Made by a program: the position numbers and the translations under genes
The notes under the pieces: model-generated
Database searches by the model: none
What the model was told of the DNA's origin: nothing
What the model saw: only the letters and a program-made list of their open reading frames with translations
Shown here: piece by piece, positions 5,185 through 54,695 of the stretch
Numbering within the stretch: position 1 is the first letter of the stretch
Layout: each line of letters opens with the position of its first letter
Assembly (NCBI GenBank): GCA_964016885.1
Contig: OZ024745.1
Coordinates: 62,000,001-62,064,000 of the forward strand
Direction of reading: 5' to 3'
Length of the DNA: 64,000 nucleotides
Origin: Eledone cirrhosa
Lineage: Eukaryota

Positions 5185-6861
5185 AGGAGAACATGATATG
5201 AAGGCTAAAAAACACTTGTGGATAGTGCAGTTTTAAATCAACATATGAAAAGTGGTTTTAGATTGATGTGTGATATTGGGAAAAATATTTTATTTAGAGA
5301 GGGGAGGGGGAAAGGATGAAAAGGGAAGGAGATGAGAGGGAGAGATGGGTGATAGAGAGAAAGAGATAGTTTTTATAACTGAGAGGAGATATATTGTTTT
5401 ACATAGAGAGGTTGAAAACCGTTGGAAGATAATGTATAAATTAAAAATTTTGAAAATTAACGAAGGGAGGATATGAGCGAGGAAAAAATATTTTATTTAG
5501 GGAGGGGGGTGGAAAGGATGAAAAAAAGGGGGAGGAGATGAGAGTGAAGGTGGAGAGGGAGAGATGGGTGATAGAGAGAAAGAGATAGTTTTTATAACTG
5601 AGAAAAAGATATATTGTTTTAACATAGAGAGGTTGGGAACCGTTGGAAGATAATGTATAAATTAAAAATTTTGAAAATTAACGAAGGGAGGATATGTGCG
5701 AGGAAAAAATATTTTATTTAGGGAGGGGGGTGGAAAGGATGAAAAAAAGGGGGAGGAGATGAGAGTGAAGGTGGAGAGGGAGAGATGGGTGATAGAGAGA
5801 AAGAGATAGTTTTTATAACTGAGAAAAAGATATATTGTTTTAACATAGAGAGGTTGGGAACCGTTGGAAGATAATGTATAAATTAAAGGAATTTGAAAAT
5901 TAACGAAGGGAAATTATGTATGAAGATAGAGAGAAAAAAATAATAATTGTGGATGAATATTCTAACGTCAAAAAAAGAAATGTATGTATTGTGGCAATTT
6001 CAAAATTAACGAAGAGAAAAATTATTAAGGTTTGTGTGTAGAAGGATTTGAGAAAAATAATGTGAAGTTAAAGTTTGTATATTGAAGGAATTGATAATAT
6101 ATGCGAATAAAGAGTTAATATGTATTAATATGTATTAATTATTAATACATATTAACTCTTTATTCGCATATATTATCAATTCCTTCAATATACAAACTTT
6201 AACTTCACATTATTTTTCTCAAATCCTTCTACACACAAACCTTAATAATTTTTCTCTTCGTTAATTTTGAAATTGCCACAATACATACATTTCTTTTTTT
6301 GACGTTAGAATATTCATCCACAATTATTATTTTTTTCTCTCTATCTTCATACATAATTTCCCTTCGTTAATTTTCAAATTCCTTTAATTTATACATTATC
6401 TTCCAACGGTTCCCAACCTCTCTATGTTAAAACAATATATCTTTTTCTCAGTTATAAAAACTATCTCTTTCTCTCTATCACCCATCTCTCCCTCTCTACC
6501 TTCACTCTCATCTCCTCCCCCTTTTTTTCATCCTTTCCACCCCCCCTCCCTAAATAAAATATTTTTTCCTCGCACATATCCTCCCTTCGTTAATTTTCAA
6601 AATTTTTAATTTATACATTATCTTCCAACGGTTTTCAACCTCTCTATGTAAAACAATATATCTCCTCTCAGTTATAAAAACTATCTCTTTCTCTCTATCA
6701 CCCATCTCTCCCTCTCATCTCCTTCCCTTTTCATCCTCCCCCCCCTCTCTAAATAAAATATTTTTCCCAATATCACACATCAATCTAAAACCACTTTTCA
6801 TATGTTGATTTAAAACTGCACTATCCACAAGTGTTTTTTAGCCTTCATATCATGTTCTCCT

Positions 6862-7740: not shown

Positions 7741-10700
7741 CTACAGGCTGATATAGAGAGAAGGCCCATTCACTCGGGCCATTCTCGCTACTTTCACCCA
7801 TCTTTCATAAAACTTGCTGGGGTAGAGCACCTCTCTCTCCATTCTGATCCTTCTTCTAAAGTGGTACTTGAAAAAAAAGACCAGTTGTTGGCCGGAGAGA
7901 TAGGTGTCTGACCTCAGCCCTTTCAACCTTGTCCACCATACAACTTCTTTCGCCATGGCTATCACACAGAGGAAAACCGCCTCTCCTTCGTTTTTGAAAG
8001 GGGGAGGCGGTTTGATTGTGACAATGTTCTCGGTGGTCCCACCCGCGACAGTAGTCGTTCTACATAGCCCCACAGGTCAGCAACGCCCGGGCAGTGTACG
8101 AATGCGTGTGCGACGGTTACCTCGTCACGCACGCATCTTGGACATATCTTCTTCGAGGGGTCCCTACCCGGGCGCCCGTATCTGTAGAGCTTGTCCCGAA
8201 CGGGTAGAGCTCCTCGGTAACATTGCCAAGCCAGGGACTTTTGGAAGTTGTCCATCGGTCCCAGGCCAAACGTCCTACCGAACAGACTGGCCAGCTCGTC
8301 TTCCTCCATGCCCAGAGCCTCTCCGAGAGCGTCGTCGCACTTACTGCGCACCAACCCTCTATAGAATGTTGAGGTTGAGTCTCCACTGATTGCCGGATCC
8401 GCTTGCCAGAGGGCCGTGAGCGCCTGGGCACATTCAATGTGCCAGTCGCCCACTTTTCTCGGTCTTTGCTTGACTCAGGATTGCAGCTCGGTGAGTGAGA
8501 CGAGTCTCGGAAAGGCTCGCCTCACAAACAGGGCCCACACCGGCTGACCGGTGAGCAATACCTGGAGGTGCCGTAACCTTAATGCGTGTCTACGCATCGT
8601 CAGCCACGGCATCCCCAGCCCTCCGTTCGAAAGGTGTTGACAGCAGATGGATCTTCTCACCAAAGGAGCCCGCTTCTTCCAAAGAAATCGGAAGAGCGCG
8701 CGCTCCATTTTGGTGAGTGTTTTCTCTGGGCAAGGCACGACGGTCAAGCGGTAGTAGATGACGGACGCTATATAAGCGTTCGCCACCTCCGCTCGACCTT
8801 TCAGCGATAGTTTGCACTCGGCCCACTTCTGGGCGAGTGCAAACACCTTGCCCATTACCTCGTCCCAGTTTTTCTCCACCTGGAGGTCCGGTCCGAACCA
8901 GACCCCGAGCAGCTTCACCGGTCCCTCCGTCCAGCGTCCGACGATGCCGTCGGAGGGCATCGTTTTGCCCCTCCACGTCCCGAGTTGCAAACCGACGGAC
9001 TTGTCTGGGTTCAGCTTGGCTCCTGTGAACCTTTCATATTCCTCCAGTAAGGTGCAATCTGCCCGATTTCCGAGGCGCACGACACCATTACTGTCACGTC
9101 ATCGGCGTAGGCCGACACCGCTTTCCGCAATCCCGGTTCCAAGGGGATGCCCTGCAACAGCTCCAGCTTCCTCAGTAGTGGCTCGAGAGCCAGCACATAC
9201 AGGAGGGAGGAAAGAGGGCATCCCTATCGAATGGATCGCGTGATTTGGAACGGCTCCGAGAGGTAGCCGTTCACCTTGACCCTCGAGCAGGTGTTGCTGC
9301 TGTGCATTGCAGCAATCCAGCCCCTGAAAACGGGTCCGAAGCCTGCCGCCGCGAGCACCGCATCCAGGTACCGATGGTCAACCCTATCGAACGCTTTAGA
9401 TTGATCCAAGTTGATCAGGGCCTCACCAAAGCCGGGTTCGTTCCCTACCCTCTCTACGATGTATCGCATGAGGTGGAGGTTGTCGTGTATGAACCTGGAC
9501 GGGATTGCGCATGTCTGAGCTTCTCCCACCAGGTTCCCGATGACAAGCGCCAACCTCTTCGCTAACACCTTGGTCAAAATCTTTAACTCTGTGTTTAGCA
9601 GAGTTATGGGCCTGAAGTTATCTATGTCATCCCTCTTGTTCTCGTCCTTCCTCACCAGCGTGACTACGCCCCTGGTCACAGAACTGGGAATTCTCCCGTT
9701 CTGTTGCCAGTTGCAGTAGACCGCCTCGAGGAGACCGGAGAACAAGCCCGGCATCGCTACATAAAGTTCGTATGGTAGACCATCGAGACCCGGAGATTTG
9801 CGTTTGCCGCATTGGCTCAGCGCTTCCCCTATTTCAGCGGCTGAAATCGGCCTCTCGCAGGACTTCGCCTCCCCGTCCGAGAGCCGCGCCAGACTGTCGA
9901 GGTATGGACCGAAATCCATGCCCCCCCCCCCGAACAGTCGTGCAAAGCGCCGTTGAAAGGCCGCGCTCATCCGCTCAGGTTCAAGGATCACGCGTCCATC
10001 CTGGTCCTTCAAAGACCGAATCGTGGACTTGTTTCCACTTTTTGCCTCTCTCACTCGGGCCCAGCTAACAGCTTTGGCTCCCTCGTTACCCAGAGCACGT
10101 ATTTTCCTCCTGACAACGCAGCCCTCGTGCTTCGCATCAAAGAACTGGTCTAAGGCCGTTCTTGACGCCAGCACACCGGCCACGTTGCCACTCCTCATCG
10201 CCTCTTCTACTCTATTTGTTAATTCCCTTTCAGTTCTATTCCTATCTGATGCTAATTTCCGACTAAAACCTATCGATTCTATTCTAATTTCTCTCTTGAG
10301 AGAGCCCCACCACCTGTTGTTGATAATTGCCCCCGCCAAACGCTGCTTAACTAGTGTGCTAATCCGCTTACTGTAAGCTTTGTTTGTCGGTAAAGACAAG
10401 TTTAGCTTCCAGTAACCGGGTCCCTGTCTATGAGTTCTATCAAGATTGACCACTACGGTCACCAACTTGTGATCCGAATAGTCAACCATGAACATTCGTG
10501 GACAGCTTAATATGTCCCTATCCTTATTTCTAACTAGGAACCTATCTAGGTACGACCTAGATGTTCCGCTGCGATTACTCCATGTCCACCGTGGCACAGT
10601 CGGAAAATCTAGTCGATATCTATCGGCCAGATCAAATCGGCCGATTAATCGTTTGAGGCTGTTACACCCCCCCTCTATCGGGACATTCCCCTACATAGTC

Positions 10701-11150
10701 CCAACGTGCATCCAGGATACCATTCCAGTCCCCCACTAAAAGCAAGGAGCGAGACGTTCCCAGGAAATTCTCCAGGCGTCGGAAGAAGTCCGGTCGCGGT
10801 GTCCCAGATGGGGCATACGCTGCCACCAGCCTGAAAGCTCCACCTTCACCTCTGCCGACGTCTAAAACCACCAGTCGACCCTCCGGGTCCAGGTGTACCT
10901 TCTGTGTGGCAAGACCCAGGTATTTTCGCAGCAGAACGACAACCCCACCCCCACCCCTCGGCTGACAGAGAGATGCGTAGATCTCAAAGTCGTCGAAGAT
11001 GGGGGCCAGTTGGCGCTCGCTGCTGATCCTGGACTCGCAAATAACCATTACATCCACTCTGTGCGACCTGAGGTCATTTAAGAGTTTGCCCTGTTTCTAG
11101 GACATCCCCAAGCCGCGTGCATTCACACATCCAACTCTTATATTGGCCAT
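7741..11150 (-). pseudogene. ORF2 (APE-RT-zinc finger) of the Tx1-like element, split by several frameshifts or stops
   Basis: Starts MANIRVGCVNARGL at 11150 and continues through ORF fragments 10662-11057, 9224-10597, 9011-9196, 8475-9080, 7962-8453 and 7741-8073. Confidence 0.9.
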
Positions 11151-11192
11151 GTTGATGCTGAAGAGGTAAAAAGGAAGAGGAAAGGAAATTAC

Positions 11193-12944
11193 TTACCTCT
11201 TCGTCTCCTGGGGACCAGGCTGCACAATTTCCATGGGGGTGTTGGAGGGGTTGTTTGGTGGTGTGATGGTTTGTGGTGGGGTGAGGACATCAGTGTGTGG
11301 TGGGATTAGGGTGTTTGGTGGGGTGTGGGTGTCTGGTGTGGGGGTGGGGAAACATCTCAATAGGACGCTGTTATGTGGTTTGGTGCAGTTGGTCCCCACA
11401 TGCATTGGATGGTTCTTTTTCAAAGTTACATAGGTTTCCGTTGGGACCCTAATCATCATTAGGTGCGATTTGTTCGCTGCGTAGGTGAAAGTGATCCCTT
11501 CGGTTTCCACCGAAGGGTTATTTTCTATCGCTTTCATCAACGTTTTATTGTTCTTGTTAATGTATGTATAGAGTTTTTGTTGTGTTGTGTTTGTTTTTGT
11601 TTGTTGTTCTTGTGCGCGTTTGCGTTTTGTAGTAAGTGTTATGTTTTGGGGAGGGGTGGGTTTTTTTATTTGTGATGTTTGTTCTGTTTGTGCTGGTGGT
11701 TGTGTGTTTGTGGCATTTTTGTTAATGTGGTGCCTTTTTTTTTCCTTTTCACCTGTTGAAAGGGTTCTCCCTCGTCGTCACTGTGTGACGTTGATACGGA
11801 GTCCTCTTCCGTGTTGTTGGGGAGGGGTATATTTTGGGGTTTTGTTGTGGTTGCTTTTGTATTTGTTTTAGGTGGGGAGGGGTTGGGTGGAGCAGTGTTT
11901 TGTGTTGTTATTTTTCCGTGTTGTCGTGGTTGTGTTGTTGTGTTCGGGGTTGGCAGAAGAGCCTTTTTTTTTTACTCGTTAATTGAGGACAGGCAGCCCT
12001 CAGGTGACCCCTGCTTAAGCAGTGGTAACATGACGGCCGCCTTCCCTCCACTGAAATGTTTATATAAGTTAGCCCGTCCAGAGGCACGCGTTGTGGGATA
12101 TTCGCTATTCGTTCTGGGCTCATTTGCACCAGAACTTCTACGGTGGTCCCACCAAATACACCTCCGGAGGACTTTCCTATTGAAATTATCTTGTCTTCGT
12201 CAAAGTTAATTATTCCACATAGTATCCACCAAATATTTACATTTGGTGTGATACTCATTATTTTTATTCTTTGTGTCCTTTTTCCCCTGTATGTGGGGTA
12301 AAAGGTGAAGCGGGGGGACACAATGGGTGCTACCGAGTACTTTTGAGCTGTTGACTGGTTGTTCATTAGCACCGAAATGCTACCAAACAGTTTACCTTTT
12401 TGTATGAAGGTTAAATCCTTTATTGCATCTTTTAGAACCAGCTCAATTTCATTTTGTGATAATTGAGCTAGTTTTCTTGTTTCGTTCGATATTGTCCTGA
12501 AAACCACAGTTTTCAGGACAGCCTCTCTACGTAATTCCTGTGGGGAATTGATGCTAAAAGCACCGTTTTCGCCAAAAGTCACGAATTGTTTTGCGTCTTG
12601 TAATAGTTGTTTAGCATTTGTTATGTCTATTGGCGTGTATAGTTCGTTTTCTTTACGGTCTGTGCGAATGTTGTTTTGGTGTTGTTGTCTTTTTTGTTAC
12701 TGTCACTGTTGGTAATATTGGTGTTGCTATTGTTGCAGTTGTTGGTTGTGGTGTTATTGTCATTGTTCTTGTTGTGGGTGCTGGTATTATTTACTGGGTT
12801 TGGTTTCGTGGTTTCGATATTTTTCACGTTTTTCGATGATCCGAGGGGGGAAGGCTGCAAGCTTTGTACTCCTACCTTCCCTCCACCACTTTTCTTAGTG
12901 GGCGTGGCACTCACGACAGTGTGCGAGATAGAAATGGCATCCAT
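11193..12944 (-). pseudogene. ORF1 (gag-like, zinc knuckle) of the Tx1-like element, frameshifted
   Basis: Fragments 12627-12944 (N/T-rich), 11908-12582 (CCHC knuckle) and 11193-11540 (P/T-rich tail), all upstream of ORF2. Confidence 0.75.
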
Positions 12945-17707: not shown

Positions 17708-18160
17708 GGACTGTCTGGCGTGTTTTCTACAGTTGGATGCCCTTCCTAACACCAACCACATTTACAGTGTGGGGCTGGGAGGTTTTTACCGTGTTGCCTA
17801 CACGGCCACATTACAGCGTGGACTGTCTGGCGGGTTTTCTACAGCTGGATGCCCTTCCTAACACCAACCACATTTACAGTGTGGGGCTGGGAGGTTTTTA
17901 CCGTGTTGCCTACACGGCCACATTACAGCGTGGACTGTCTGGCGGGTTTTCTACAGCTGGATGCCCTTCCTAACACCAACCACATTTACAGTGTGGGGCT
18001 GGGAGGTTTTTACCGTGTTGCCTACACGGCCACATTACAGCGTGGACTGTCTGGCGGGTTTTCTACAGCTGGATGCCCTTCCTAACACCAACCACATTTA
18101 CAGTGTGGGGCTGGGAGGTTTTTACCGTGTTGCCTACACGGCCACATTTACAGCGTGGAC
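17708..18160. repeat. 4 x 112-bp tandem repeat in the RTE 3' UTR
   Basis: GGACTGTCTGGCG...GGATGCCCTTCCTAACACCAACCAC units start at 17708, 17820, 17932 and 18044. Confidence 0.95.
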
Positions 18161-18284
18161 TGTGTGTTTTTTTGTCGTGACACCTACACGATCTCATTTG
18201 TTTCGGCCTGGATGTTGTGGGACCAACATAACTTTACATTGAAAGGGGCGGTGTGGGTGGGGTGGAGGTGGTGGGACTTTGTAT

Positions 18285-21200
18285 TTAGGTAAGGCGGGTC
18301 TTCTCTATTACTGAGTACCGCCAAAGGTCTCGGTCCAGTGACATTGTCTTGGAGAGGTGTAAGCGTGTGAGGTCGGAATTTATCAGCTCGTCCCATGTTT
18401 TTCTGGGTCTGCCTACTCCGTGGCTACCGTCTATCTTTATTGCCCTGCACTTTGTTATACAGCTGTCGTCTTTCATGCGCATCACGTGACCGTACCAACG
18501 TAGCCTTCTCTCGAGTAAACAACATCTGATCCCTCTTATTTCTAATTTTTTCCTTAGTTCGTTTATGCTTTGCCGTTCACGTATATTACTATTGCACATC
18601 CAGCGGAGCATGCAAGCTTCGTTCCTCTCTAGTCTGCGTATATCCTCTGCACACAATGCCCAGGTCTCACTGCCATGCAGCATTGCTGTTCGTATGCAGG
18701 CATCGTATAACCTGCCTTTCATTTTTAGGGAGAACCCTCTAGCGGCTAATAGTGGTATAAGCTCTCTGAACTTTTTCCATCCAGTTCTGACTCTAGCTAC
18801 TGTACTTTCAGAGCACCCTCCCCCACTGCTGATTTTGTCACCCAGATAACGGAAGCTGTCCACTATTTCTATAGAACCCTCTGCGCAGTTGAAGGAGCTA
18901 GTATTTTGTGGGCACTTGCTGCTACTTATTGCACCAGAGCACCGGCCACATGTAAAATCTATGTTCTTAGTTAGCTTACCTGTGATCCCACTACATCTTT
19001 TATGCACCCATACTTTGCATTTGGGACATAAAATGGAGTTTCTACCTACGCCTTTCCTACACACTGAGCATGGCCATTTCCCAGATGGGACCGCCGCCTT
19101 ATTTTCTTTCCTACAAACTAGAACTTTAGTCTTAGCCAGGTTAATTTTAAGGCCTTTTGATTCTAGGCCGTGCTTCCATGTTTGGAATTTCTTCTCTAGT
19201 TCGGTCATTGATTCAGCTATGAGCGTTAGATCATCTGCGTATAGGAGTTCCCATGGGCAGCCGGTCTTGAACTCCTCTGTTATAGCCTGAAGGGCAATAA
19301 TAAATAGTAGGGGGCTAAGAACAGAGCCCTGATGGACACCAACTTTTACGCTAAACTCTTCACTATATTCGTTGTTAATTCTAACCTTACTGACTGTTTC
19401 TTTATACATGGCTTGTATAGCTCTCACAAGCCATTCGTCAACACCTAGTTTTCTAAGAGACCACCAGATAATGGAACGGGGGACTCTGTCGAAGGCTTTC
19501 TCCAAGTCGACGAAAGCTAAGTATAGGGGTTTACTTTTAGCTAGGTACTTCTCCTGTAGTTGTCGTACAATGAAAAGAGCGTCTGTGGTACTTTTGCCTG
19601 ACACAAACCCGAACTGCATTTCATCTAGATCAATTCTCTCTCTGATTAGTTGCGCTATTACTTTTTCCGTGACCTTCATGACCTGGTCGATTAATTTAAT
19701 GCCTCTATAGTTACTCCTATCTAGGGCATCTCCTTTTCCCTTATAGCAGTTAACGATGATGCTGCTACGCCAGTCCTTCGGAACAACCCCATTCTGTACG
19801 ACTTGGTTAACTATCCGGGTGACCATGGTGTGTCCCACCGAACCAGATGCCTTCAGCATCTCAGCAACTATTTCCGAAGGCCCAGCCGCCTTACCCGTCT
19901 TCATATCTTTGATTGCCTTACTTATTATACTACCTTCAACTAACACTGCTGGTCCCTCTATTGGATCGATCTGGGGGAGACTGTCTTTCTCCCATTTGTT
20001 CTCCTCATTTAGAAGCCTTTCGTAGTGACACTTCCAAGCTACCTTCTTATCAGCGTCGGTGATGGCAAGTATGCCATCATCGTTAAGTACACACTTCTCC
20101 CCGACAATATCACGGTTTTCCTTGACACATTGCCTGGCAATCCTGAACACCTCACGTTTTTGGTCCTCACGTTGTAGAACATGCTTGAACTTTCTTTCCT
20201 CTGCTTCCCTTCTTGCGAAGTACACTTGTCTCCTAGCTTCCCTCCTGGCCACTTGATAGTCTTCTCTACTTCCCCCATCCCGCCATACTTTCCAAGCCTG
20301 CTTTTTGGCCTTAATTGACTCCTCCACCTTACTGTTCCACCACCATGTTACTCTCCTCCTACCTACAGGCCTGCTCCAGCCACAGACTTCGTCTGCCGCC
20401 GTCAGCAGGTTTGCTCTCAGGAATTCCCACTGTTCCTCTATATTATACGACTCTAATTGCTCTTCCTTACTGTCGAAAGCGTCAAGTAATATGCTTTGAA
20501 ATTTATTTCTGGCTATGGGGTCCTTTAGCTTCCATATTTTTCTCCTGAGGATAGTCCTCTTCCGCTGTCTAGTACGTCTCGTCCTGACTATGAGGTCGCT
20601 AATTATCAGTCTATGTTGGGAGGTGAATTCTTCATGGGGGTGGGATTTAGTGTTAACAACAGACACTCTGTCACGTCTTCTGGTAAGGATATAGTCTACC
20701 TGGCTTGTGTGTTCCCCCGATCTATAGGTGATCAAGTGATTGTCTCGTTTTTTGAAGTTAGTGTTACAGATAGTTAAGTTATTTGCATCGCAGAATTCAA
20801 GGATTCTGGACCCTTCCTCATTTCTAGTACCGAACCCATAGCCTCCATGGATTCCGTCATAGCCGTCACAATGTTGTCCAACGTGACCATTTAGGTCGCC
20901 TGCAATAACTATATAGTCACTGTCGGTTATTTGGGAGGTAGCGAGCATCAGTGTCTCGTAGAATCTGTCTTTTATAGCGCCGGGCAGTCCGGATTGGGGT
21001 GCGTACGCAGATATTACTGTCACCGTAGTTTTATTGAGGACAAGTCTTATTTTAATTATTCTGTCGTTCACTCTATTTACGTCTATTATCTTATCTGCCC
21101 ACTTTTCTGCTACCATGATTCCTACCCCACCCAACCCATTGTCATTTCCCACCCAGAAAAGCTTATAGCATCGTTCTTTACCCACGATGAATCTAGCCGA

Positions 21201-21305
21201 CCCTCCCCTCCACCTGGTCTCTTGAATACAACAAACATCGACCTCCTTACGTTCAAGCATTTCTACAACCTCGTTAGAGCGACCCTTTAAGGTGCCTACA
21301 TTCAT
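18285..21305 (-). CDS. RTE LINE polyprotein: APE endonuclease, reverse transcriptase and Cys/His (PHD-like) insertion, 1006 aa, uninterrupted
   Basis: Motifs NVGTL, CIQETRW, SAYAPQ, AGDLNGHVG, QVDYIL, NYRGIKL, FVDLEKAFD, GVHQGSVLSP, LYADD, CSVC..CPKC..HKRC and RRLRWYGHV. Confidence 0.93.
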   Translation of the reverse strand: MNVGTLKGRSNEVVEMLERKEVDVCCIQETRWRGGSARFIVGKERCYKLFWVGNDNGLGGVGIMVAEKWADKIIDVNRVNDRIIKIRLVLNKTTVTVISAYAPQSGLPGAIKDRFYETLMLATSQITDSDYIVIAGDLNGHVGQHCDGYDGIHGGYGFGTRNEEGSRILEFCDANNLTICNTNFKKRDNHLITYRSGEHTSQVDYILTRRRDRVSVVNTKSHPHEEFTSQHRLIISDLIVRTRRTRQRKRTILRRKIWKLKDPIARNKFQSILLDAFDSKEEQLESYNIEEQWEFLRANLLTAADEVCGWSRPVGRRRVTWWWNSKVEESIKAKKQAWKVWRDGGSREDYQVARREARRQVYFARREAEERKFKHVLQREDQKREVFRIARQCVKENRDIVGEKCVLNDDGILAITDADKKVAWKCHYERLLNEENKWEKDSLPQIDPIEGPAVLVEGSIISKAIKDMKTGKAAGPSEIVAEMLKASGSVGHTMVTRIVNQVVQNGVVPKDWRSSIIVNCYKGKGDALDRSNYRGIKLIDQVMKVTEKVIAQLIRERIDLDEMQFGFVSGKSTTDALFIVRQLQEKYLAKSKPLYLAFVDLEKAFDRVPRSIIWWSLRKLGVDEWLVRAIQAMYKETVSKVRINNEYSEEFSVKVGVHQGSVLSPLLFIIALQAITEEFKTGCPWELLYADDLTLIAESMTELEKKFQTWKHGLESKGLKINLAKTKVLVCRKENKAAVPSGKWPCSVCRKGVGRNSILCPKCKVWVHKRCSGITGKLTKNIDFTCGRCSGAISSSKCPQNTSSFNCAEGSIEIVDSFRYLGDKISSGGGCSESTVARVRTGWKKFRELIPLLAARGFSLKMKGRLYDACIRTAMLHGSETWALCAEDIRRLERNEACMLRWMCNSNIRERQSINELRKKLEIRGIRCCLLERRLRWYGHVMRMKDDSCITKCRAIKIDGSHGVGRPRKTWDELINSDLTRLHLSKTMSLDRDLWRYSVIEKTRLT

Positions 21306-21469
21306 GGTACCAACTCTGAAGTTTTGGATTGCGTTTGGAGGGTGGGAGCGGTGGGGCGCGGGGGGGGGGATGGGGTTATGTTAGCCATCCTGGGCCGAAA
21401 CAAGGAGGAGTGCTTGCATTCTCGTCCACGAGGTGAATTTGGCTTTATCTTTGGCATTGTCGCTGAGCG

Positions 21470-37779: not shown

Positions 37780-37832
37780 ATTTTGTCTGATGAGGACGTA
37801 CAGTTGTACATCCGAAATATGTATAATAAAAT
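37780..37832 (+). ncRNA. Type I hammerhead ribozyme
   Basis: ATTTTGT-CTGATGA-GGACGTACA-GT-TGTACATCC-GAAA-TATGTA-TA-ATAAAAT. Confidence 0.8.
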
Positions 37833-37873: not shown

Positions 37874-37910
<37 letters not shown>

Positions 37911-37962
37911 AGTATGCATGTATACGTACATACATATATGTATACAGACGTACAGTAGCATG

Positions 37963-37996
<34 letters not shown>

Positions 37997-38160
37997 TACA
38001 TACATATGCATACAGGTACACATACATATATGCACGTATCAGTTTAGCGGCGCTTATTATAACGTCGCTTTGTTCGTTTGTAAACAAACTGAACAGCCTG
38101 AATTTATGCCATACGGTGTTAAGGCAACCACGTCACCTTTTTGTTCAACACTGACCCAGG

Positions 38161-38205
38161 AACGATGTACTAGTTTCAAGCTTGTTAGCTATCATCAGCA
38201 CCGTT
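38161..38205 (-). ncRNA. Hammerhead ribozyme, array A unit 1
   Basis: Reverse complement reads AACGGTG-CTGATGA-TAGCT-AACA-AGCTT-GAAA-CTAG-TA-CATCGTT. Confidence 0.8.
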
Positions 38206-38628
38206 TACCCATCTGCCAGATAGTTGAACGTTCGAAATTATATACTTTCCTTATGAAAATTAACGGCTGAGCAGCCTAATTTGCATATTGAGTGAGTAAA
38301 ATCGGTCAGGCATACCGAAAACGATAAATTGAAACAAAATGAAAACGAAATTTCATTTCTCACTCTTAGTATGGCACTTACTTAAATGTAAGTATGCATG
38401 TATACGTACATACATATATGTATACAGACGTACAGTAGCATGCACATATATATATATACATATATACATACATATGCATACAGGTACACATACATATATG
38501 CACGTATCAGTTTAGCGGCGCTTATTATAACGTCGCTTTGTTCGTTTGTAAACAAACAAAACAGCCTGAATTTATGCCATACGGTGTTAAGGCAACCACG
38601 TCACCTTTTTGTTCAACACTGACACAGG

Positions 38629-38673
38629 AACGATGTACTAGTTTCAAGCTTGTTAGCTATCATCAGCACCGTT
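38629..38673 (-). ncRNA. Hammerhead ribozyme, array A unit 2
   Basis: Identical motif to unit 1. Confidence 0.8.
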
Positions 38674-39136
38674 TACCCATCTGCCAGATAGTTGAACGTT
38701 CGAAAGTATATACTTTCCTTATGAAAATTAACGGCTGAGCAGCCTAATTTGCATATTGAGTGAGTTAAATCGGTCAGGCATACCGAAAACGATAAATTGA
38801 AACAACATGAAAACGAAATTTCATTTCTCACTCTTAGTATGGCACTTACTTAAATGTAAGTATGCATGTATACGAACAAAGCGACGTTATAATAAGCGCC
38901 GCTAAACTGATACGTGCATATATGTATGTGTACCTGTATGCATATGTATGTATATATGTATATATATATATATATATGTGCATGCTACTGTACGTCTGTA
39001 TACATATATGTATGTACGTATACATGCATACTTACATTTAAGTAAGTGCCATACTAAGAGTGAGAAATGAAATTTCGTTTTCATTTTGTTTCAATTTATC
39101 GTTTTCGGTATGCCTGACCGATTTAACTCACTCAAT

Positions 39137-39144
39137 ATGCAAAT
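39137..39144 (+). promoter_or_regulatory. Octamer motif ATGCAAAT (candidate snRNA-type promoter element), array A
   Basis: Lies about 80 nt upstream of the HHR and is conserved in array B despite divergence. Confidence 0.45.
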
Positions 39145-39217
39145 TATGCTCCTCAGCCGTTAATTTTCATAAGGAAAGTATATACTTTCGAACGTTCAAC
39201 TATCTGGCAGATGGGTA

Positions 39218-39262
39218 AACGGTGCTGATGATAGCTAACAAGCTTGAAACTAGTACATCGTT
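39218..39262 (+). ncRNA. Hammerhead ribozyme, array A inverted arm
   Basis: AACGGTG-CTGATGA-TAGCTAACAAGCTT-GAAA-CTAG-TA-CATCGTT. Confidence 0.8.
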
Positions 39263-39569
39263 CCTGTGTCAGTGTTGAACAAAAAGGTGACGTGGTTGCC
39301 TTAACACCGTATGGCATAAATTCAGGCTGTTCAGTTTGTTTACAAACGAACAAAGCGACGTTATAATAAGCGCCGCTAAACTGATACGTGCATATATGGA
39401 TGTGTACCTGTATGCATATGTATGTATATATGTATATATATATATATATATATGTGCATGCTACTGTACGTCTGTATACATATATGTATGTACGTATACA
39501 TGCATACTTACATTTAAGTAAGTGCCATACTAAGAGTGAGAAATGAAATTTCGTTTTCATTTTGTTTCA

Positions 39570-39699
<130 letters not shown>

Positions 39700-43829: not shown

Positions 43830-45190
43830 GTGAAACACTGGAAGGTAATATCCGTAGTGGTAGAGCACTCAGTCCAAGGGACGAGTTAGATAGAAGTGGT
43901 TACACAACAGTTAGTTCACCATACCGAGAACAATTGTTTCACATTCGCGGATCTTCAGCTCGGGATGTGTATGGTTATAGGAACAGGAAGGACAATCGTA
44001 CGAACGCGCATGCGCAGAAACTCGGTCACTTCACACAGGCAATAGTAGACTGCGTGCGGGGGGTGTAAAGGAGATAACTGCGAAAGTCCGGAAAGTTTTT
44101 TGGTCGAAAATAAAATAAAAAAATTTAAAATTAAAATTTCAAAGAATCAGTCCGGAGCCTTGTAGTTATGTAATAGATGTTTGGTGACGTGTGGATAACG
44201 TGTGAAAAAATAACTCTCGTGTTTAGGCAATAACTATTGCGTAATCTCTTTAGGATAGTTATTCGTTCGTCAATACATAAGACACACCTCGGATTTCCCT
44301 TGCGTATGGCTTGGACTTAGTGATGGCTTTCCATTGAATGGAGTACTCTATACTTGAGTCCTTGAGGGACCATACGTGGCTCGCGAGTTTCGTGGATGAA
44401 CGCCTGTCCGGGTATCTGAAGGTAGACTGGTGGTTCAGGAAACGCTCCTTGAATCGGACCTCCGCCATGCCCACATAGGATTTGACCGCCTGTGGTTCGT
44501 TTGGTCGGTTGGAAGTGACCACAGCTTCATAGATTACAGCTGGTGTGTTGCATTGTTGTTGAAGGGGGCAAGCTTCAGGCTTACGGCAAGAGCACCCTGG
44601 TGGGGTGTTGCTCCTAGGGCTGCTGGTGATGTGGGACTTCATGTTCTTAGCGCAGGAGTATCCTAGTTTAACTTTGTGTCGGTTAAAGATGGAGCGGTAT
44701 TTATGACCTATGGGGAAGTGTCTATCTAAGAGGGCTAGAAATCTTTTTCCTACATTGGTTTTAACGTTGAGTGAGAAGGGAGGAGAGAAGTTTGTCTATT
44801 GTTGCACTTACTTTTCTTAATGGTGTTGTTGCTAGTGGGAGAGTAAATGATAGGCTGTGAGAAGCCGCTGTTAGCCAACGCCGTGTTATAGTAGGGTGCC
44901 GCCCTGTCAAAGATAGCCTTATTAGAGGAGAGGTTTGAGATTCTAGTACTGATATTCTTAACGAAGTTTCTAAAAACAGTGGGAGCGTGGCATGAGTCCT
45001 TTTGAATGTAATTAAGTTTCTCGTTTAGCTTCTGGAAGGGTCTGTGGGTGTGTGTGCGAAGGTCTAAATTAATGTCTAAGAAATCTACGCTAGAGAGGTT
45101 GGTGGCTACTGTTATCCTAAGACCTAACTCATTGAAGATAGAAGCTAAGTCTTTTTTAAACCGGTCGAGGTCGTGACCACTTTTATGGCC
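43827..45190 (-). mobile_element. Penelope-like element (Neptune type) 3' remnant
   Basis: CSCRKPEACPLQQQC, IYEAVV..YVGMAE..FKERFLNHQSTF and TKLASHVWSLK. RT and thumb remnants at 44640-45180 (VDFLDINLDL, KLGYSC). pLTR carries a HHR. Confidence 0.88.
43920..43967 (-). ncRNA. Type I hammerhead ribozyme in the Neptune pLTR
   Basis: Reverse complement reads CCGAG-CTGAAGA-TCCGCGAATGT-GAAA-CAATTG-TT-CTCGG. Stem II is weak. Confidence 0.65.
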
Positions 45191-45230
45191 CGATAAAGTC
45201 TTATATATATATATTTATATATATAAAGTG

Positions 45231-49150: not shown

Positions 49151-50507
49151 TGGCAAAGTTTAGACATATAATTAACCTCCTATTCCACAGAATAATTGTA
49201 AAGGTACATAGATATTAGTGTTGTCATTAACAGTGTCATATTTAAAGAGTGAAGATGGTGTGGTCAGTATCAGTGGATGCGACAAAGATTATAAAAGAAT
49301 AATAAAACAAGAGGAATTAAAGAAGAAAGTTACTCGCAAAATGAGGACATTAGCGGTACGTATGCAAACGTATAGAAATAGGGAAGAGGTATTAGGCATA
49401 TACAGAATAACCAGGTAAGAAACACGCAATGACACTAAGCATATATATCACAGTATGGCAAAGGTATCACATAATACAATACAGGTATAAAAGCATATTA
49501 AGCAGACAGAGATGCGTGGGTATGAAAATCAGTTTCTATGAAGTTTATGGTGGATGCAATGTGATAATTGTTCCGGTAATGTTCAAATGTGCATGTGTTG
49601 TGAGTATTAATATTAAGGTTTTCCTTTCCATTACATTGGTTATATTTTAGTAAATGTTTATTAGTAGCTACAACTATGGATTGTATATTGGTCCTATTAC
49701 GATCTTATCATGGGTTAGAGTTGTTCTGGAGTGATGTGTCTAAAGGTTTAATTTCAGGAAGTGATCAGAGATCTATACTAAGGGAAGCTAATTTGAAAGG
49801 GGAGGTAATTGGCGATTAATTTGTGTATAAGAGAAAAGTATATAGTTGTTTACAACTCCAATTAGTTAAATTCTATGTGTATACAATATATTATGTTATA
49901 AGTGAATTCTTTTATATAATGCTATTTATTTTTAAAATTTATATATTTAATTTTAAATACAATATTTTTTCTATATACCTTAAAGTTCTCATTTTATCAC
50001 TACCTATCTATATATTAATTAAATGAATAAAATATATGTTTATTCCCATTAGTTATTGTAGAGTATAAGATCTGAGATAAACATTGATAAAAATTTAACA
50101 TTGAGTGCTTTCGTAACAGTCTTCGAAATTCAATCGGATGCGAATCTGCTACTTGCAGCTGCAACTCCGTTTATACTCATTACTATTATATATATATATA
50201 TTTATATAGATATAAAAACAAATAACAAAACGAAATTAAATTTCGTTTCGTTTGTAACTCACTTTTGTATGACTGACGCTTAAACAATTAAGTTAAAAAT
50301 GTACATCTACATATGCATACTGAAATACTAGTGTGTATATGAATACACACACGTATACATATGTAGGTGTAACAAGTCTTTCACTGGTTGCTTTACTGTG
50401 AGCAACCCAGCTATTCTGTATGTAAACACACAGACAAACCGGTTTTTAGAGTCATACTGGTTTTCGGGGGAACACCTTCCCTCTATTCTCCAGAAAGCCA
50501 GACAAGG

Positions 50508-50552
50508 AATATTGAACTAGTTTCGTTGTTGTTACAACTCATCAGCAATATT
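50508..50552 (-). ncRNA. Hammerhead ribozyme, array B inverted arm
   Basis: Reverse complement reads AATATTG-CTGATGA-GTTGT-AACA-ACAAC-GAAA-CTAG-TT-CAATATT. Confidence 0.85.
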
Positions 50553-51006
50553 TACCTATCTACCGGCCCCTCTGGAGAATTGTAAAAGCACATATCGTTA
50601 TATGCTTTTTCTATGAAAATTAGTAGTGGGCAGACTAATTTGCATAGAGTGTGAGTACGCACCGGTTCAGCGGAGACGATAAAAATAAATAACGAAACGA
50701 AATTAAATTTCGTTTCGTTTGTAACTCACTTTTGTATGACTGACGCTTAAACAATTAAGTTAAAAATGTACATCTACATATGCATACTGAAATACTAGTG
50801 TGTATATGAATACACACACGTATACATATGTAGGTGTAACAAGTCTTTCACTGGTTGCTTTACTGTGAGCAACCCAGCTATTCTGTATGTAAACACACAG
50901 ACAAACCGGTTTTTAGAGTCATACTGGTTACAAACGAAACGAAATTTAATTTCGTTTTGTTATTTGTTTTTATCGTCTCCGCTGAACCGGTGCGTACTCA
51001 CACTCT

Positions 51007-51014
51007 ATGCAAAT
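51007..51014 (+). promoter_or_regulatory. Octamer motif ATGCAAAT, array B (repeated in every unit)
   Basis: Lies about 93 nt upstream of HHR stem I, in a block conserved with array A. Confidence 0.45.
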
Positions 51015-51099
51015 TAGTCTGCCCACTACTAATTTTCATAGAAAAAGCATATAACGATATGTGCTTTTACAATTCTCCAGAGGGGCCGGTAGATAGGTA

Positions 51100-51144
51100 A
51101 ATATTGCTGATGAGTTGTAACAACAACGAAACTAGTTCAATATT
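51100..51144 (+). ncRNA. Hammerhead ribozyme, array B unit 1
   Basis: AATATTG-CTGATGA-GTTGTAACAACAAC-GAAA-CTAG-TT-CAATATT. Confidence 0.85.
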
Positions 51145-51566
51145 CCTTGTCTGGCTTTCTGAAGAATAGAGGGAAGGTGTTCCCCCGAAAACCAGTATGA
51201 CTCTAAAAACCGGTTTGTCTGTGTGTTTACATACAGAATAGCTGGGTTGCTCACAGTAAAGCAACCAGTGAAAGACTTGTTACACCTACATATGTATACG
51301 TGTGTGTATTCATATACACACTAGTATTTCAGTATGCATATGTAGATGTACATTTTTAACTTAATTGTTTAAGCGTCAGTCATACAAAAGTGAGTTACAA
51401 ACGAAACGAAATTTAATTTCGTTTCGTTATTTGTTTTTATCGTCTCCGCTGAACCGGTGCGTACTCACACTCTATGCAAATTAGTCTGCCCACTACTAAT
51501 TTTCAAAGAAAAAGCATATAACGATATGTGCTTTTACAATTCTCCAGAGGGGCCGGTAGATAGGTA

Positions 51567-51611
51567 AATATTGCTGATGAGTTGTAACAACAACGAAACT
51601 AGTTCAATATT
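51567..51611 (+). ncRNA. Hammerhead ribozyme, array B unit 2
   Basis: Identical motif to unit 1. Confidence 0.85.
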
Positions 51612-52046
51612 CCTTGTCTGGCTTTCTGGAGAATAGAGGGAAGGTGTTCCCCCGAAAACCAGTATGACTCTAAAAACCGGTTTGTCTGTGTGTTTACATA
51701 CAGAATAGCTGGGTTGCTCACAGTAAAGCAACCAGTGAAAGACTTGTTACACCTACATATGTATACGTGTGTGTATTCATATACACACTAGTATTTCAGT
51801 ATGCATATGTAGATGTACATTTTTAATTTACATTTTTAACTTAATTGTTTAAGCGTCAGTCATACAAAAGTGAGTTACAAACGAAACGAAATTTAATTTC
51901 GTTTTGTTATTTGTTTTTATCGTCTCCGCTGAACCGGTGCGTACTCACACTCTATGCAAATTAGTCTGCCCACTACTAATTTTCATAGAAAAAGCATATA
52001 ACGATATGTGCTTTTACAATTCTCCAGAGGGGCCGGTAGATAGGTA

Positions 52047-52091
52047 AATATTGCTGATGAGTTGTAACAACAACGAAACTAGTTCAATATT
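52047..52091 (+). ncRNA. Hammerhead ribozyme, array B unit 3
   Basis: Identical motif to unit 1. Confidence 0.85.
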
Positions 52092-52513
52092 CCTTGTCTG
52101 GCTTTCTGAAGAATAGAGGGAAGGTGTTCCCCCGAAAACCAGTATGACTCTAAAAACCGGTTTGTCTGTGTGTTTACATACAGAATAGCTGGGTTGCTCA
52201 CAGTAAAGCAACCATTGAAAGACTTGTTTCACCTACATATGTATACGTGTGTGTATTCATATACACACTAGTATTTCAGTATGCATATGTAGATGTACAT
52301 TTTTAACTTAATTGTTTAAGCGTCAGTCATACAAAAGTGAGTTACAAACGAAACGAAATTTAATTTCGTTTCGTTATTTGTTTTTATCGTCTCCGCTGAA
52401 CCGGTGCGTACTCACACTCTATGCAAATTAGTCTGCCCACTACTAATTTTCATAGAAAAAGCATATAACGATATGTGCTTTTACAATTCTCCAGAGGGGC
52501 CGGTAGATAGGTA

Positions 52514-52558
52514 AATATTGCTGATGAGTTGTAACAACAACGAAACTAGTTCAATATT
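52514..52558 (+). ncRNA. Hammerhead ribozyme, array B unit 4
   Basis: Identical motif to unit 1. Confidence 0.85.
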
Positions 52559-52993
52559 CCTTGTCTGGCTTTCTGGAGAATAGAGGGAAGGTGTTCCCCC
52601 GAAAACCAGTATGACTCTAAAAACCGGTTTGTCTGTGTGTTTACATACAGAATAGCTGGGTTGCTCACAGTAAAGCAACCAGTGAAAGACTTGTTACACC
52701 TACATATGTATACGTGTGTGTATTCATATACACACTAGTATTTCAGTATGCATATGTAGATGTACATTTTTAATTTACATTTTTAACTTAATTGTTTAAG
52801 CGTCAGTCATACAAAAGTGAGTTACAAACGAAACGAAATTTAATTTCGTTTTGTTATTTGTTTTTATCGTCTCCGCTGAACCGGTGCGTACTCACACTCT
52901 ATGCAAATTAGTCTGCCCACTACTAATTTTCATAGAAAAAGCATATAACGATATGTGCTTTTACAATTCTCCAGAGGGGCCGGTAGATAGGTA

Positions 52994-53038
52994 AATATTG
53001 CTGATGAGTTGTAACAACAACGAAACTAGTTCAATATT
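52994..53038 (+). ncRNA. Hammerhead ribozyme, array B unit 5
   Basis: Identical motif to unit 1. Confidence 0.85.
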
Positions 53039-53460
53039 CCTTGTCTGGCTTTCTGAAGAATAGAGGGAAGGTGTTTCCCCGAAAACCAGTATGACTCTAA
53101 AAACCGGTTTGTCTGTGTGTTTACATACAGAATAGCTGGGTTGCTCACAGTAAAGCAACCAGTGAAAGACTTGTTTCACCTACATATGTATACGTGTGTG
53201 TATTCATATACACACTAGTATTTCAGTATGCATATGTAGATGTACATTTTTAACTTAATTGTTTAAGCGTCAGTCATACAAAAGTGAGTTACAAACGAAA
53301 CGAAATTTAATTTCGTTTCGTTATTTGTTTTTATCGTCTCCGCTGAACCGGTGCGTACTCACACTCTATGCAAATTAGTCTGCCCACTACTAATTTTCAA
53401 AGAAAAAGCATATAACGATATGTGCTTTTACAATTCTCCAGAGGGGCCGGTAGATAGGTA

Positions 53461-53505
53461 AATATTGCTGATGAGTTGTAACAACAACGAAACTAGTTCA
53501 ATATT
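53461..53505 (+). ncRNA. Hammerhead ribozyme, array B unit 6
   Basis: Identical motif to unit 1. Confidence 0.85.
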
Positions 53506-53940
53506 CCTTGTCTGGCTTTCTGAAGAATAGAGGGAAGGTGTTCCCCCGAAAACCAGTATGACTCTAAAAACCGGTTTGTCTGTGTGTTTACATACAGACT
53601 AGCTGGGTTGCTCACAGTAAAGCAACCAGTGAAAGACTTGTTACACCTACATATGTATACGTGTGTGTATTCATATACACACTAGTATTTCAGTATGCAT
53701 ATGTAGATGTACATTTTTAATTTACATTTTTAACTTAATTGTTTAAGCGTCAGTCATACAAAAGTGAGTTACAAACGAAACGAAATTTAATTTCGTTTTG
53801 TTATTTGTTTTTATCGTCTCCGCTGAACCGGTGCGTACTCACACTCTATGCAAATTAGTCTGCCCACTACTAATTTTCATAGAAAAAGCATATAACGATA
53901 TGTGCTTTTACAATTCTCCAGAGGGGCCGGTAGATAGGTA

Positions 53941-53985
53941 AATATTGCTGATGAGTTGTAACAACAACGAAACTAGTTCAATATT
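53941..53985 (+). ncRNA. Hammerhead ribozyme, array B unit 7
   Basis: Identical motif to unit 1. Confidence 0.85.
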
Positions 53986-54407
53986 CCTTGTCTGGCTTTC
54001 TGAAGAATAGAGGGAAGGTGTTCCCCCGAAAACCAGTATGACTCTAAAAACCGGTTTGTCTGTGTGTTTACATACAGAATAGCTGGGTTGCTCACAGTAA
54101 AGCAACCAGTGAAAGACTTGTTTCACCTACATATGTATACGTGTGTGTATTCATATACACACTAGTATTTCAGTATGCATATGTAGATGTACATTTTTAA
54201 CTTAATTGTTTAAGCGTCAGTCATACAAAAGTGAGTTACAAACGAAACGAAATTTAATTTCGTTTCGTTATTTGTTTTTATCGTCTCCGCTGAACCGGTG
54301 CGTACTCACACTCTATGCAAATTAGTCTGCCCACTACTAATTTTCATAGAAAAAGCATATAACGATATGTGCTTTTACAATTCTCCAGAGGGGCCGGTAG
54401 ATAGGTA

Positions 54408-54452
54408 AATATTGCTGATGAGTTGTAACAACAACGAAACTAGTTCAATATT
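54408..54452 (+). ncRNA. Hammerhead ribozyme, array B unit 8
   Basis: Identical motif to unit 1. Confidence 0.85.
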
Positions 54453-54695
54453 CCTTGTCTGGCTTTCTGGAGAATAGAGGGAAGGTGTTCCCCCGAAAAC
54501 CAGTATGACTCTAAAAACCGGTTTGTCTGTGTGTTTACATACAGAATAGCTGGGTTGCTCACAGTAAAGCAACCAGTGAAAGACTTGTTACACCTACATA
54601 TGTATACGTGTGTGTATTCATATACACACTAGTATTTCAGTATGCATATGTAGATGTACATTTTTAACTTAATTGTTTATATAGATATATATATA

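Follow-up and report, generated by a model that had tools for sequence, protein, structure and literature searches.

The octamer ATGCAAAT and the block TAATTTTCATA, which recur in two tandem arrays (A and B) of the 64-kb stretch of DNA analysed here (the window), are predicted to be the two arms of one RNA hairpin, conserved in both families of repeat units. This invariant hairpin (hairpin 1) is likely to be a sequence-specific docking site for a Penelope-type reverse transcriptase, which would start copying upstream of the octamer, at distances of about 35 and 101 nt; we put the probability of this reading at roughly 55%. The support comes from the complementarity of the two arms, from an order of stems common to both families, from covariation in the neighbouring stems, from natural variants that spare the fold of one strand only, from the insertion anatomy of the arrays and from the matching positions of their ends. 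The reading is limited by the number of families, which is only two, by a tail that is too long, by a 221-bp repeat that carries part of the block, by the invariance of the hairpin itself and by a mismatch that completes the octamer.

Two tandem arrays of hammerhead units

Both arrays show a Penelope-type insertion anatomy, with divergent inverted arms and AT-rich targets (Table 1); Penelope elements are known for truncated inverted arms, for a tail at the end and for insertion into (TA)n (PMC8557442). A target-site duplication is readable at array A, and array B is flanked on both sides by (TA)n runs in which a duplication is unreadable. In the plus arm of array A the units alternate between 467 and 480 bp, and a diagnostic base alternates in the same manner in 8/8 units. 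This higher-order period of 947 bp in 50927-54679 suggests that the template was dimeric or that a dimer was duplicated; the remaining variants do not follow it.

Table 1. Coordinates of the arrays, octamers, hairpins, hammerheads and insertion ends, numbered from the first letter of the window
Feature	Position	Strand	Remarks
Array A	50212..54679	.	minus arm 50212-50929 (about 1.5 units), plus arm 50927-54679 (8 units); arms divergent from one junction
Array B	37906..39575	.	minus arm of about 2 units of 468 bp, plus arm of about 1.5 units; arms diverge near 38872-38878
Target-site duplication, array A	left 50201..50214, right 54676-54689	+	14 bp, AT-rich; overlaps the element ends by a few bases
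Far insertion end, array A	54668..54679	+	-103 from octamer start, in a small end hairpin
Octamer ATGCAAAT, family A, unit 1	51007..51014	+	sequence match
Further octamers, family A	51474, 51954, 52421, 52901, 53368, 53848, 54315; 50638-50645	+ (first seven); - (last)	
Octamers, family B	39137..39144; 38747-38754 and 38279-38286	+ (first); - (other two)	
Hairpin 1, family A	51004..51042	+	predicted; 5' arm 51006-51016 (contains the octamer) with block 51030-51040; core identical to that of B
Hairpin 1, family B	39136..39171	+	predicted; same 11+11 core and same C×U mismatch, loop differs
Hairpin 2, family A	51043..51069	+	purine-rich block and TATA-like run form its 5' arm
Hairpin 2, family B	39174..39189	+	6 bp; one broken pair in 1/3 copies
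Upstream structured domain, family A	50933..51001	+	predicted fold: hairpin 0, linker, small hairpin, 3' arm of closing stem
Type I hammerhead, family A	51089..51160	+	helix I 51100-51144; Rfam HH9 match; predicted cut after 51137
Type I hammerhead motif, family B	39218..39262	+	core motif and fold; predicted cut after 39255

The hammerhead of family A matched the Rfam HH9 model with an E value of 2.5e-8 and 38.6 bits, below the gathering score of 52, and has a helix III of 2 bp with a palindromic tip. The hammerhead of family B has a U·U at the base of helix II and gave no Rfam hammerhead match at E<=0.01; its assignment rests on the core motif, the fold and covariation. At gathering scores there were 0 Rfam matches in the window, and matches to miRNA families were rejected as noise from AT-rich hairpins. 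At the predicted cleavage site (52551 and 51137) family A has U, some contigs of two public runs (X1 and X5) have C and family B has A, as would be expected if the N-U-H site is genuine.

Neither array overlaps with any ORF of at least 150 aa. The features found agree with those used to define retrozymes, namely tandem non-coding units with type I hammerheads, a target-site duplication longer than 4 bp (in array A), no LTR and a self-paired monomer. Judged by sequence, arrays A and B most likely represent two new families of non-LTR retrozymes, a class that is already known. Non-LTR retrozymes have short non-coding tandem units, type I hammerheads, low GC and long target duplications (PMC7229834), and are described as derived from Penelope pLTRs (preprint 10.64898/2026.07.22.740005). 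The likeness to the metazoan members in these two sources lies in the head-to-tail arrangement of non-coding units with one type I hammerhead each, and also in the low GC, the target-site duplication of more than 4 bp, the highly self-paired predicted monomer and the short palindromic helix III. The units of 467-480 bp are slightly longer than the range of 150-450 bp in PMC7229834 and fall inside the range of 51-972 bp in the preprint. An octamer-bearing hairpin and paired end positions, as found here, and a promoter, as proposed here, are in contrast not described for retrozymes in the accessible text of either source. The literature searched, which excluded the supplement of PMC7229834, likewise yielded no report of an octamer or a promoter in retrozymes. 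A hammerhead-anchored pattern for further family members gave 0 matches in metagenome contigs and 0 in prokaryote genomes. In viral contigs a looser hammerhead pattern gave 13 matches, 0 of them with an octamer within 150 nt upstream, and the octamer-plus-block pattern gave 0.

Several other repeats and elements were seen in the window. Minimal Penelope-type hammerhead motifs of another family are present at 37787 (+), 35869 (-) and 32333 (+), with no octamer or block within 300 nt upstream of any of the three; the first two belong to a 380-bp inverted pair with 95.5% identity, and array B starts about 120 nt past the start of the motif at 37787. Two broken ORFs at 44259-45214 (-) resemble, by eye, the end of a Penelope reverse transcriptase and a GIY-YIG-type nuclease, and 0 Pfam families were matched there. 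No partner Penelope pLTR homologous to the units was found among the listed self-BLAST matches of the window. An intact LINE ORF of 1031 aa with endonuclease, reverse transcriptase and PHD finger occupies 18285-21380 (-), its nearest relatives being at most 53% identical. A broken L1/Tx1-like retroelement with a reverse transcriptase (Pfam RVT_1 in 9224-10690) and a probable ORF1 lies at 7962-12696 (-), and a 112-bp tandem repeat of 4.1 copies, 99% identical, at 17708-18163. Judged by its LINEs and microsatellites the DNA is that of an animal, and its repeat landscape resembles that of octopus genomes.

The octamer and the block as arms of one predicted hairpin

The octamer has 16 matches in the window as against 5.6 expected in shuffles. 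Twelve of the 16 belong to the arrays: family A accounts for 9 (8 on the plus and 1 on the minus strand) and family B for 3 (1 on the plus and 2 on the minus strand). The remaining 4 are unrelated to the arrays; the excess is array multiplicity only. The original prediction had placed the octamer at 51007 and 39137, in every unit and 80-95 nt upstream of the hammerhead. It was indeed found at both positions and in all 12 copies that span the site (9/9 of family A and 3/3 of family B), and the distance from its start to helix I, 93 nt in A and 81 nt in B, fits the range given (100 and 88 nt, respectively, if counted to the catalytic core). The conserved block said to follow the octamer was borne out for the greater part: it begins 23-24 nt past the octamer start in both families and is exact in 10/12 copies (7/9 A, 3/3 B), but 2/9 copies of family A (blocks at 51497 and 53391) have T>A at the tenth base of TAATTTTCATA. 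This change breaks one pair in the 3' arm of hairpin 1, while the octamer never varies.

Since the copies within one array are 95.8-100% identical, the only informative comparison is that of family A with family B. The two families have 59.8% identity over 440 ungapped alignment columns. Their alignment contains 10 identical runs of at least 6 nt, of which the octamer arm and the block are the longest two, with 11 nt each, the run in the hammerhead core being 9 nt long and thus below both. A chance octamer is to be expected in about 3% of units of this size. As judged from this alignment, the conservation of octamer and block between the families is above that expected by chance.

In both families the octamer arm and the block are reverse-complementary at 10/11 positions, and upon folding the two sequences are paired, so that octamer and block together make up one conserved predicted RNA hairpin. 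The lone mismatch of the stem is a C×U located at the C of the octamer in A as well as in B; without this very C the octamer in the arm would not be perfect. One pair of the stem (position 52430) had a pair probability of 1.0, and the stem was retained in a consensus fold of both families made from two A and three B copies. An inverted partner at 10/11 within 40 nt was found for 260 of 50,198 background 11-mers of the window (0.5%), where composition predicts 0.14%. Between A and B the stem is unchanged at 22/22 bases (11/11 pairs) and shows zero compensatory changes. The chance of an unchanged stem is 0.6^11 = 0.0035 if it is counted as 11 pairs, before correction for about a dozen stems. Because no compensatory change is present, the pairing of hairpin 1 rests on complementarity, on folding and on one G·U variant, and its invariance would fit a DNA-binding site equally well. 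Read on the opposite strand, the block is itself an octamer with one mismatch, and the element is thereby also an inverted pair of POU-like sites.

The stems around hairpin 1 gave a more varied picture. Hairpin 2, which follows it, has 2 of the 6 pairs common to A and B doubly changed in a compensatory manner. The purine-rich conserved block of the original prediction is present in the sequence, and is predicted to form, with the TATA-like run, the 5' arm of this covarying hairpin. Upstream of the octamer both families have the same order of stems: a small end hairpin, the closing stem, hairpin 0, a linker and a small hairpin. In family A hairpin 0 is at 50933-50961, and the single-stranded linker after it contains the near insertion end. 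One of 3 pairs of the small hairpin (50979-50990 in family A) is compensated in B, and the closing stem is the same in A and B at 5/5 pairs. Besides hairpin 1, two other stems are unchanged between the families (5/5 and 4/4 pairs). In the hammerhead, 3/7 pairs of helix I and 3/5 pairs of helix II are doubly changed. Folding of the sense monomer gave z values of -8.4 to -9.7 against 40 shuffles, and that of the antisense monomer -3.6 to -8.0.

Natural variation was assessed with contigs of four public runs placed on one family A unit, which gave 32 variant sites. The family is abundant in run X1, where 1,080 contigs match the unit, and runs X5 and X6 cover only parts of it at low depth. In the circular sense fold 17 of the sites were unpaired, 11 kept their pair and 4 broke it, compared with 11.0 breaks expected (P about 0.001). 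In the antisense fold 11 breaks were found as against 13.2 expected (P 0.21). With 7 single-contig sites left out, the sense fold had 2 breaks at 25 sites (7.5 expected) and the antisense fold 10 (12.0 expected). The natural variants of family A thus spare the sense-strand fold and not the antisense fold, in a test that covers the whole unit, uses a predicted fold and draws on incomplete lists of contig variants. The sole variant listed inside hairpin 1, A>G at 52430, converts an A-U pair to G·U and so keeps the pair. No variant is listed in the octamer among the contigs of the four runs, and none in those contigs across 90 nt at 52306-52395 either.

Insertion ends and a proposed Penelope-type enzyme

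The ends of the two arrays were compared relative to the octamer start. The near ends are at 50212 in A (-34) and at 39575 in B (-38), and follow the same conserved linker letters. The far end of array B (37906, -100) sits in a hairpin homologous to that which holds the far end of A. The sense 3' ends of A and B thus correspond, with one end about 35 nt and the other about 101 nt ahead of the octamer. The chance of such a match is roughly 7e-4, a figure that overstates the case because TA microhomology favours such places and blurs the ends. From near to far end the distance is 69 nt in A and 62 nt in B, in contrast to the Penelope tail of 30-40 bp.

The Penelope enzyme of the anole provides a model for such paired ends (PMC11167929). 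In vitro it extends both target strands and uses two internal start sites; it starts at +111 to +118 of the ORF, needs template up to +172, and requires about 55-60 nt of template 3' of the start sites. Hairpin 1 has the same place relative to the near end as this template has relative to the anole starts. The arrays resemble Penelope pLTRs and the anole Poseidon element PAc (PMC11167929, PMC8557442, PMC4209133) in the inverted 5'-truncated arm and the AT-rich or (TA)n targets, and further in two ends a short 'tail' apart and a hammerhead inside the repeat. They differ from Penelope elements in that the units have no ORF and in the tail of 62-69 nt instead of 30-40. In PAc, moreover, the start sites are 3' of the hammerhead at an AC-rich stem loop, whereas the starts proposed here would be about 115-200 nt 5' of the next hammerhead.

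By analogy with the retrozymes of PMC7229834, the 468-nt unit would be transcribed as a multimer, cut by its hammerheads and circularised. The ends of the arrays would correspond to the starts of reverse transcription, and the invariant stem with its C×U mismatch may be what the enzyme, or a host protein, binds. The window also contains, at 5278-6768, a 221-bp tandem repeat with purine/pyrimidine skew, a large inverted copy and no hammerhead. The block's first nine letters are present in this repeat, which has 12 nt in common with the block of family B, without the octamer arm (E about 0.06); this hints weakly that the block may occur on its own.

Other readings of the octamer

The invariance of the arms could also be explained by use of the element at two levels, a reading we hold to be possible but unlikely. 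As DNA, the inverted pair of octamer-like sites, of which one is perfect and the second, on the opposite strand, has one mismatch, with 13-14 bp between the arms, would bind a POU factor and drive internal transcription by Pol II, no PSE being needed; as RNA, the same sequence would fold as the hairpin. In line with this, both arms are unchanged between A and B (22/22 bases; 0.0035 when counted as pairs) while the neighbouring stems covary, the retained mismatch is the C of the octamer, and the four runs list no octamer variant. Retrozymes are known to be strongly transcribed (PMC7229834), and in the accessible text of that paper the word 'promoter' occurs only in two figure legends concerning T7. 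Newt satellite II, which has an snRNA promoter used by Pol II (PMC2220036), provides a precedent, and the window has no tRNA gene as a source of a Pol III promoter. However, an RNA-binding protein explains the invariance equally well, and the pair of octamers lies inside a domain that is otherwise clearly RNA structure. In a combined form, which we regard as rather unlikely, the element is a 36-bp palindrome read twice, with the POU-site pair serving as the Pol II promoter of each unit and the RNA hairpin positioning the Penelope reverse transcriptase at its two starts. If true, an animal retrozyme from outside the amphibians would for the first time have a defined promoter and a defined enzyme-recognition signal, both in one element.

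It is improbable that the element has no special role, and that common ancestry, a stable AT-rich stem and a chance identity to the octamer account for what was seen. Only two families are available, their alignment has ten identical runs of 6 nt or more, two other stems are just as unchanged (5/5 and 4/4 pairs), and the 90 nt at 52306-52395 are likewise without a listed variant. The octamer-block pair also arises alone in AT-rich DNA: it was found in at least 118 metagenome stretches, of which, among those listed, 0/118 were unit-like by BLAST and 2/118 had a loose core motif, and these matches were put down to chance. On the other hand, the octamer arm and the block exceed even the runs of the hammerhead core as the longest identical runs between A and B, both families retain the identical C×U mismatch, and the insertion ends are at fixed distances from the stem.

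Least probable of all, in our estimate, is the proposal from which the analysis started, that each unit carries its own compact promoter of the snRNA type, like newt satellite 2, with the octamer and a PSE (the block and the purine run) leading SNAPc to a start near the hammerhead. An exact octamer does stand 23-24 nt ahead of the block in A and B, and in family A the top score for the human PSE within 70 nt of the octamer falls on the block (8/12). The fruit-fly PSE begins with an AT-rich stretch like the start of the block. A compact layout of octamer and PSE exists in the human H1 promoter of 100 bp (PMC7949045), and the snRNA promoter motifs of schistosomes are 'highly derived' (PMC2770079), so a poor match to the human sequence is not decisive for an invertebrate PSE. 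No report of a PSE from a cephalopod or mollusc was found in the literature searched, papers on the coleoid genome and on moth telomerase yielded no consensus that could be used, and the window has no snRNA gene at Rfam gathering scores.

Several results nevertheless argue against such a promoter. The block agrees with the human PSE consensus (PMC5493778) at 8/12 (A) and 7/12 (B) of the specified bases and does not have the TCACC core. When 62-nt stretches are shuffled, 58% and 50% of them equal the best PSE score within 70 nt of the octamer, which is 8/12 in both A and B. With its start 19 nt past the block start, the TATA-like run abuts the 18-nt would-be PSE, whereas the spacer between PSE and TATA is 15-19 bp in human (PMC7949045) and 8 bp in a 7SK-like gene of the fly. 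The best scores for a Staf site and a 3' box are within about one base of the shuffle means. From the block to the hammerhead core the distance is 77 nt in A and 64 nt in B, a difference of 13 nt, and the runs of 4-5 T in the sense strand argue against a full-length Pol III product. The model further needs a host PSE that is complementary to the octamer by coincidence (0.1-0.5%). As the block is the complementary arm of the octamer hairpin, a 'PSE-like block' needs no promoter explanation, and the PSE claim is, from the sequence, unsupported although not disproved. An snRNA-type promoter in each unit is accordingly unsupported as it was stated, with a PSE at chance level, no spacer and a block that is the octamer's complement.

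The units are like newt satellite 2 in being tandem repeats in which an exact octamer precedes a hammerhead, the difference being that no significant PSE is present here and that the partner block is the complement of the octamer. The newt promoter, for which PMC2220036 refers to Coats et al. (1994), is reported to include both an octamer and a PSE. The amphibian precedent itself stands, inasmuch as PMC2220036 states that Pol II uses that snRNA promoter, but the parallel in the present units is not shown. With the compact type 3 promoter of human H1 (PMC7949045) the units have in common an octamer that is at most about 100 bp away from a possible start site; they differ in that neither a Staf site nor a PSE scores above chance and that PSE and TATA are not separated by 15-19 bp. 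A Pol III promoter of tRNA origin was rejected, there being no tRNA gene in the window.

The two diverged families point to a single 11-bp stem that does not vary and to a pair of end positions that agree. Both the transcription of animal retrozymes and their recruitment of a Penelope enzyme thereby become testable with a small number of point mutations, by which octamer and pairing can be told apart.
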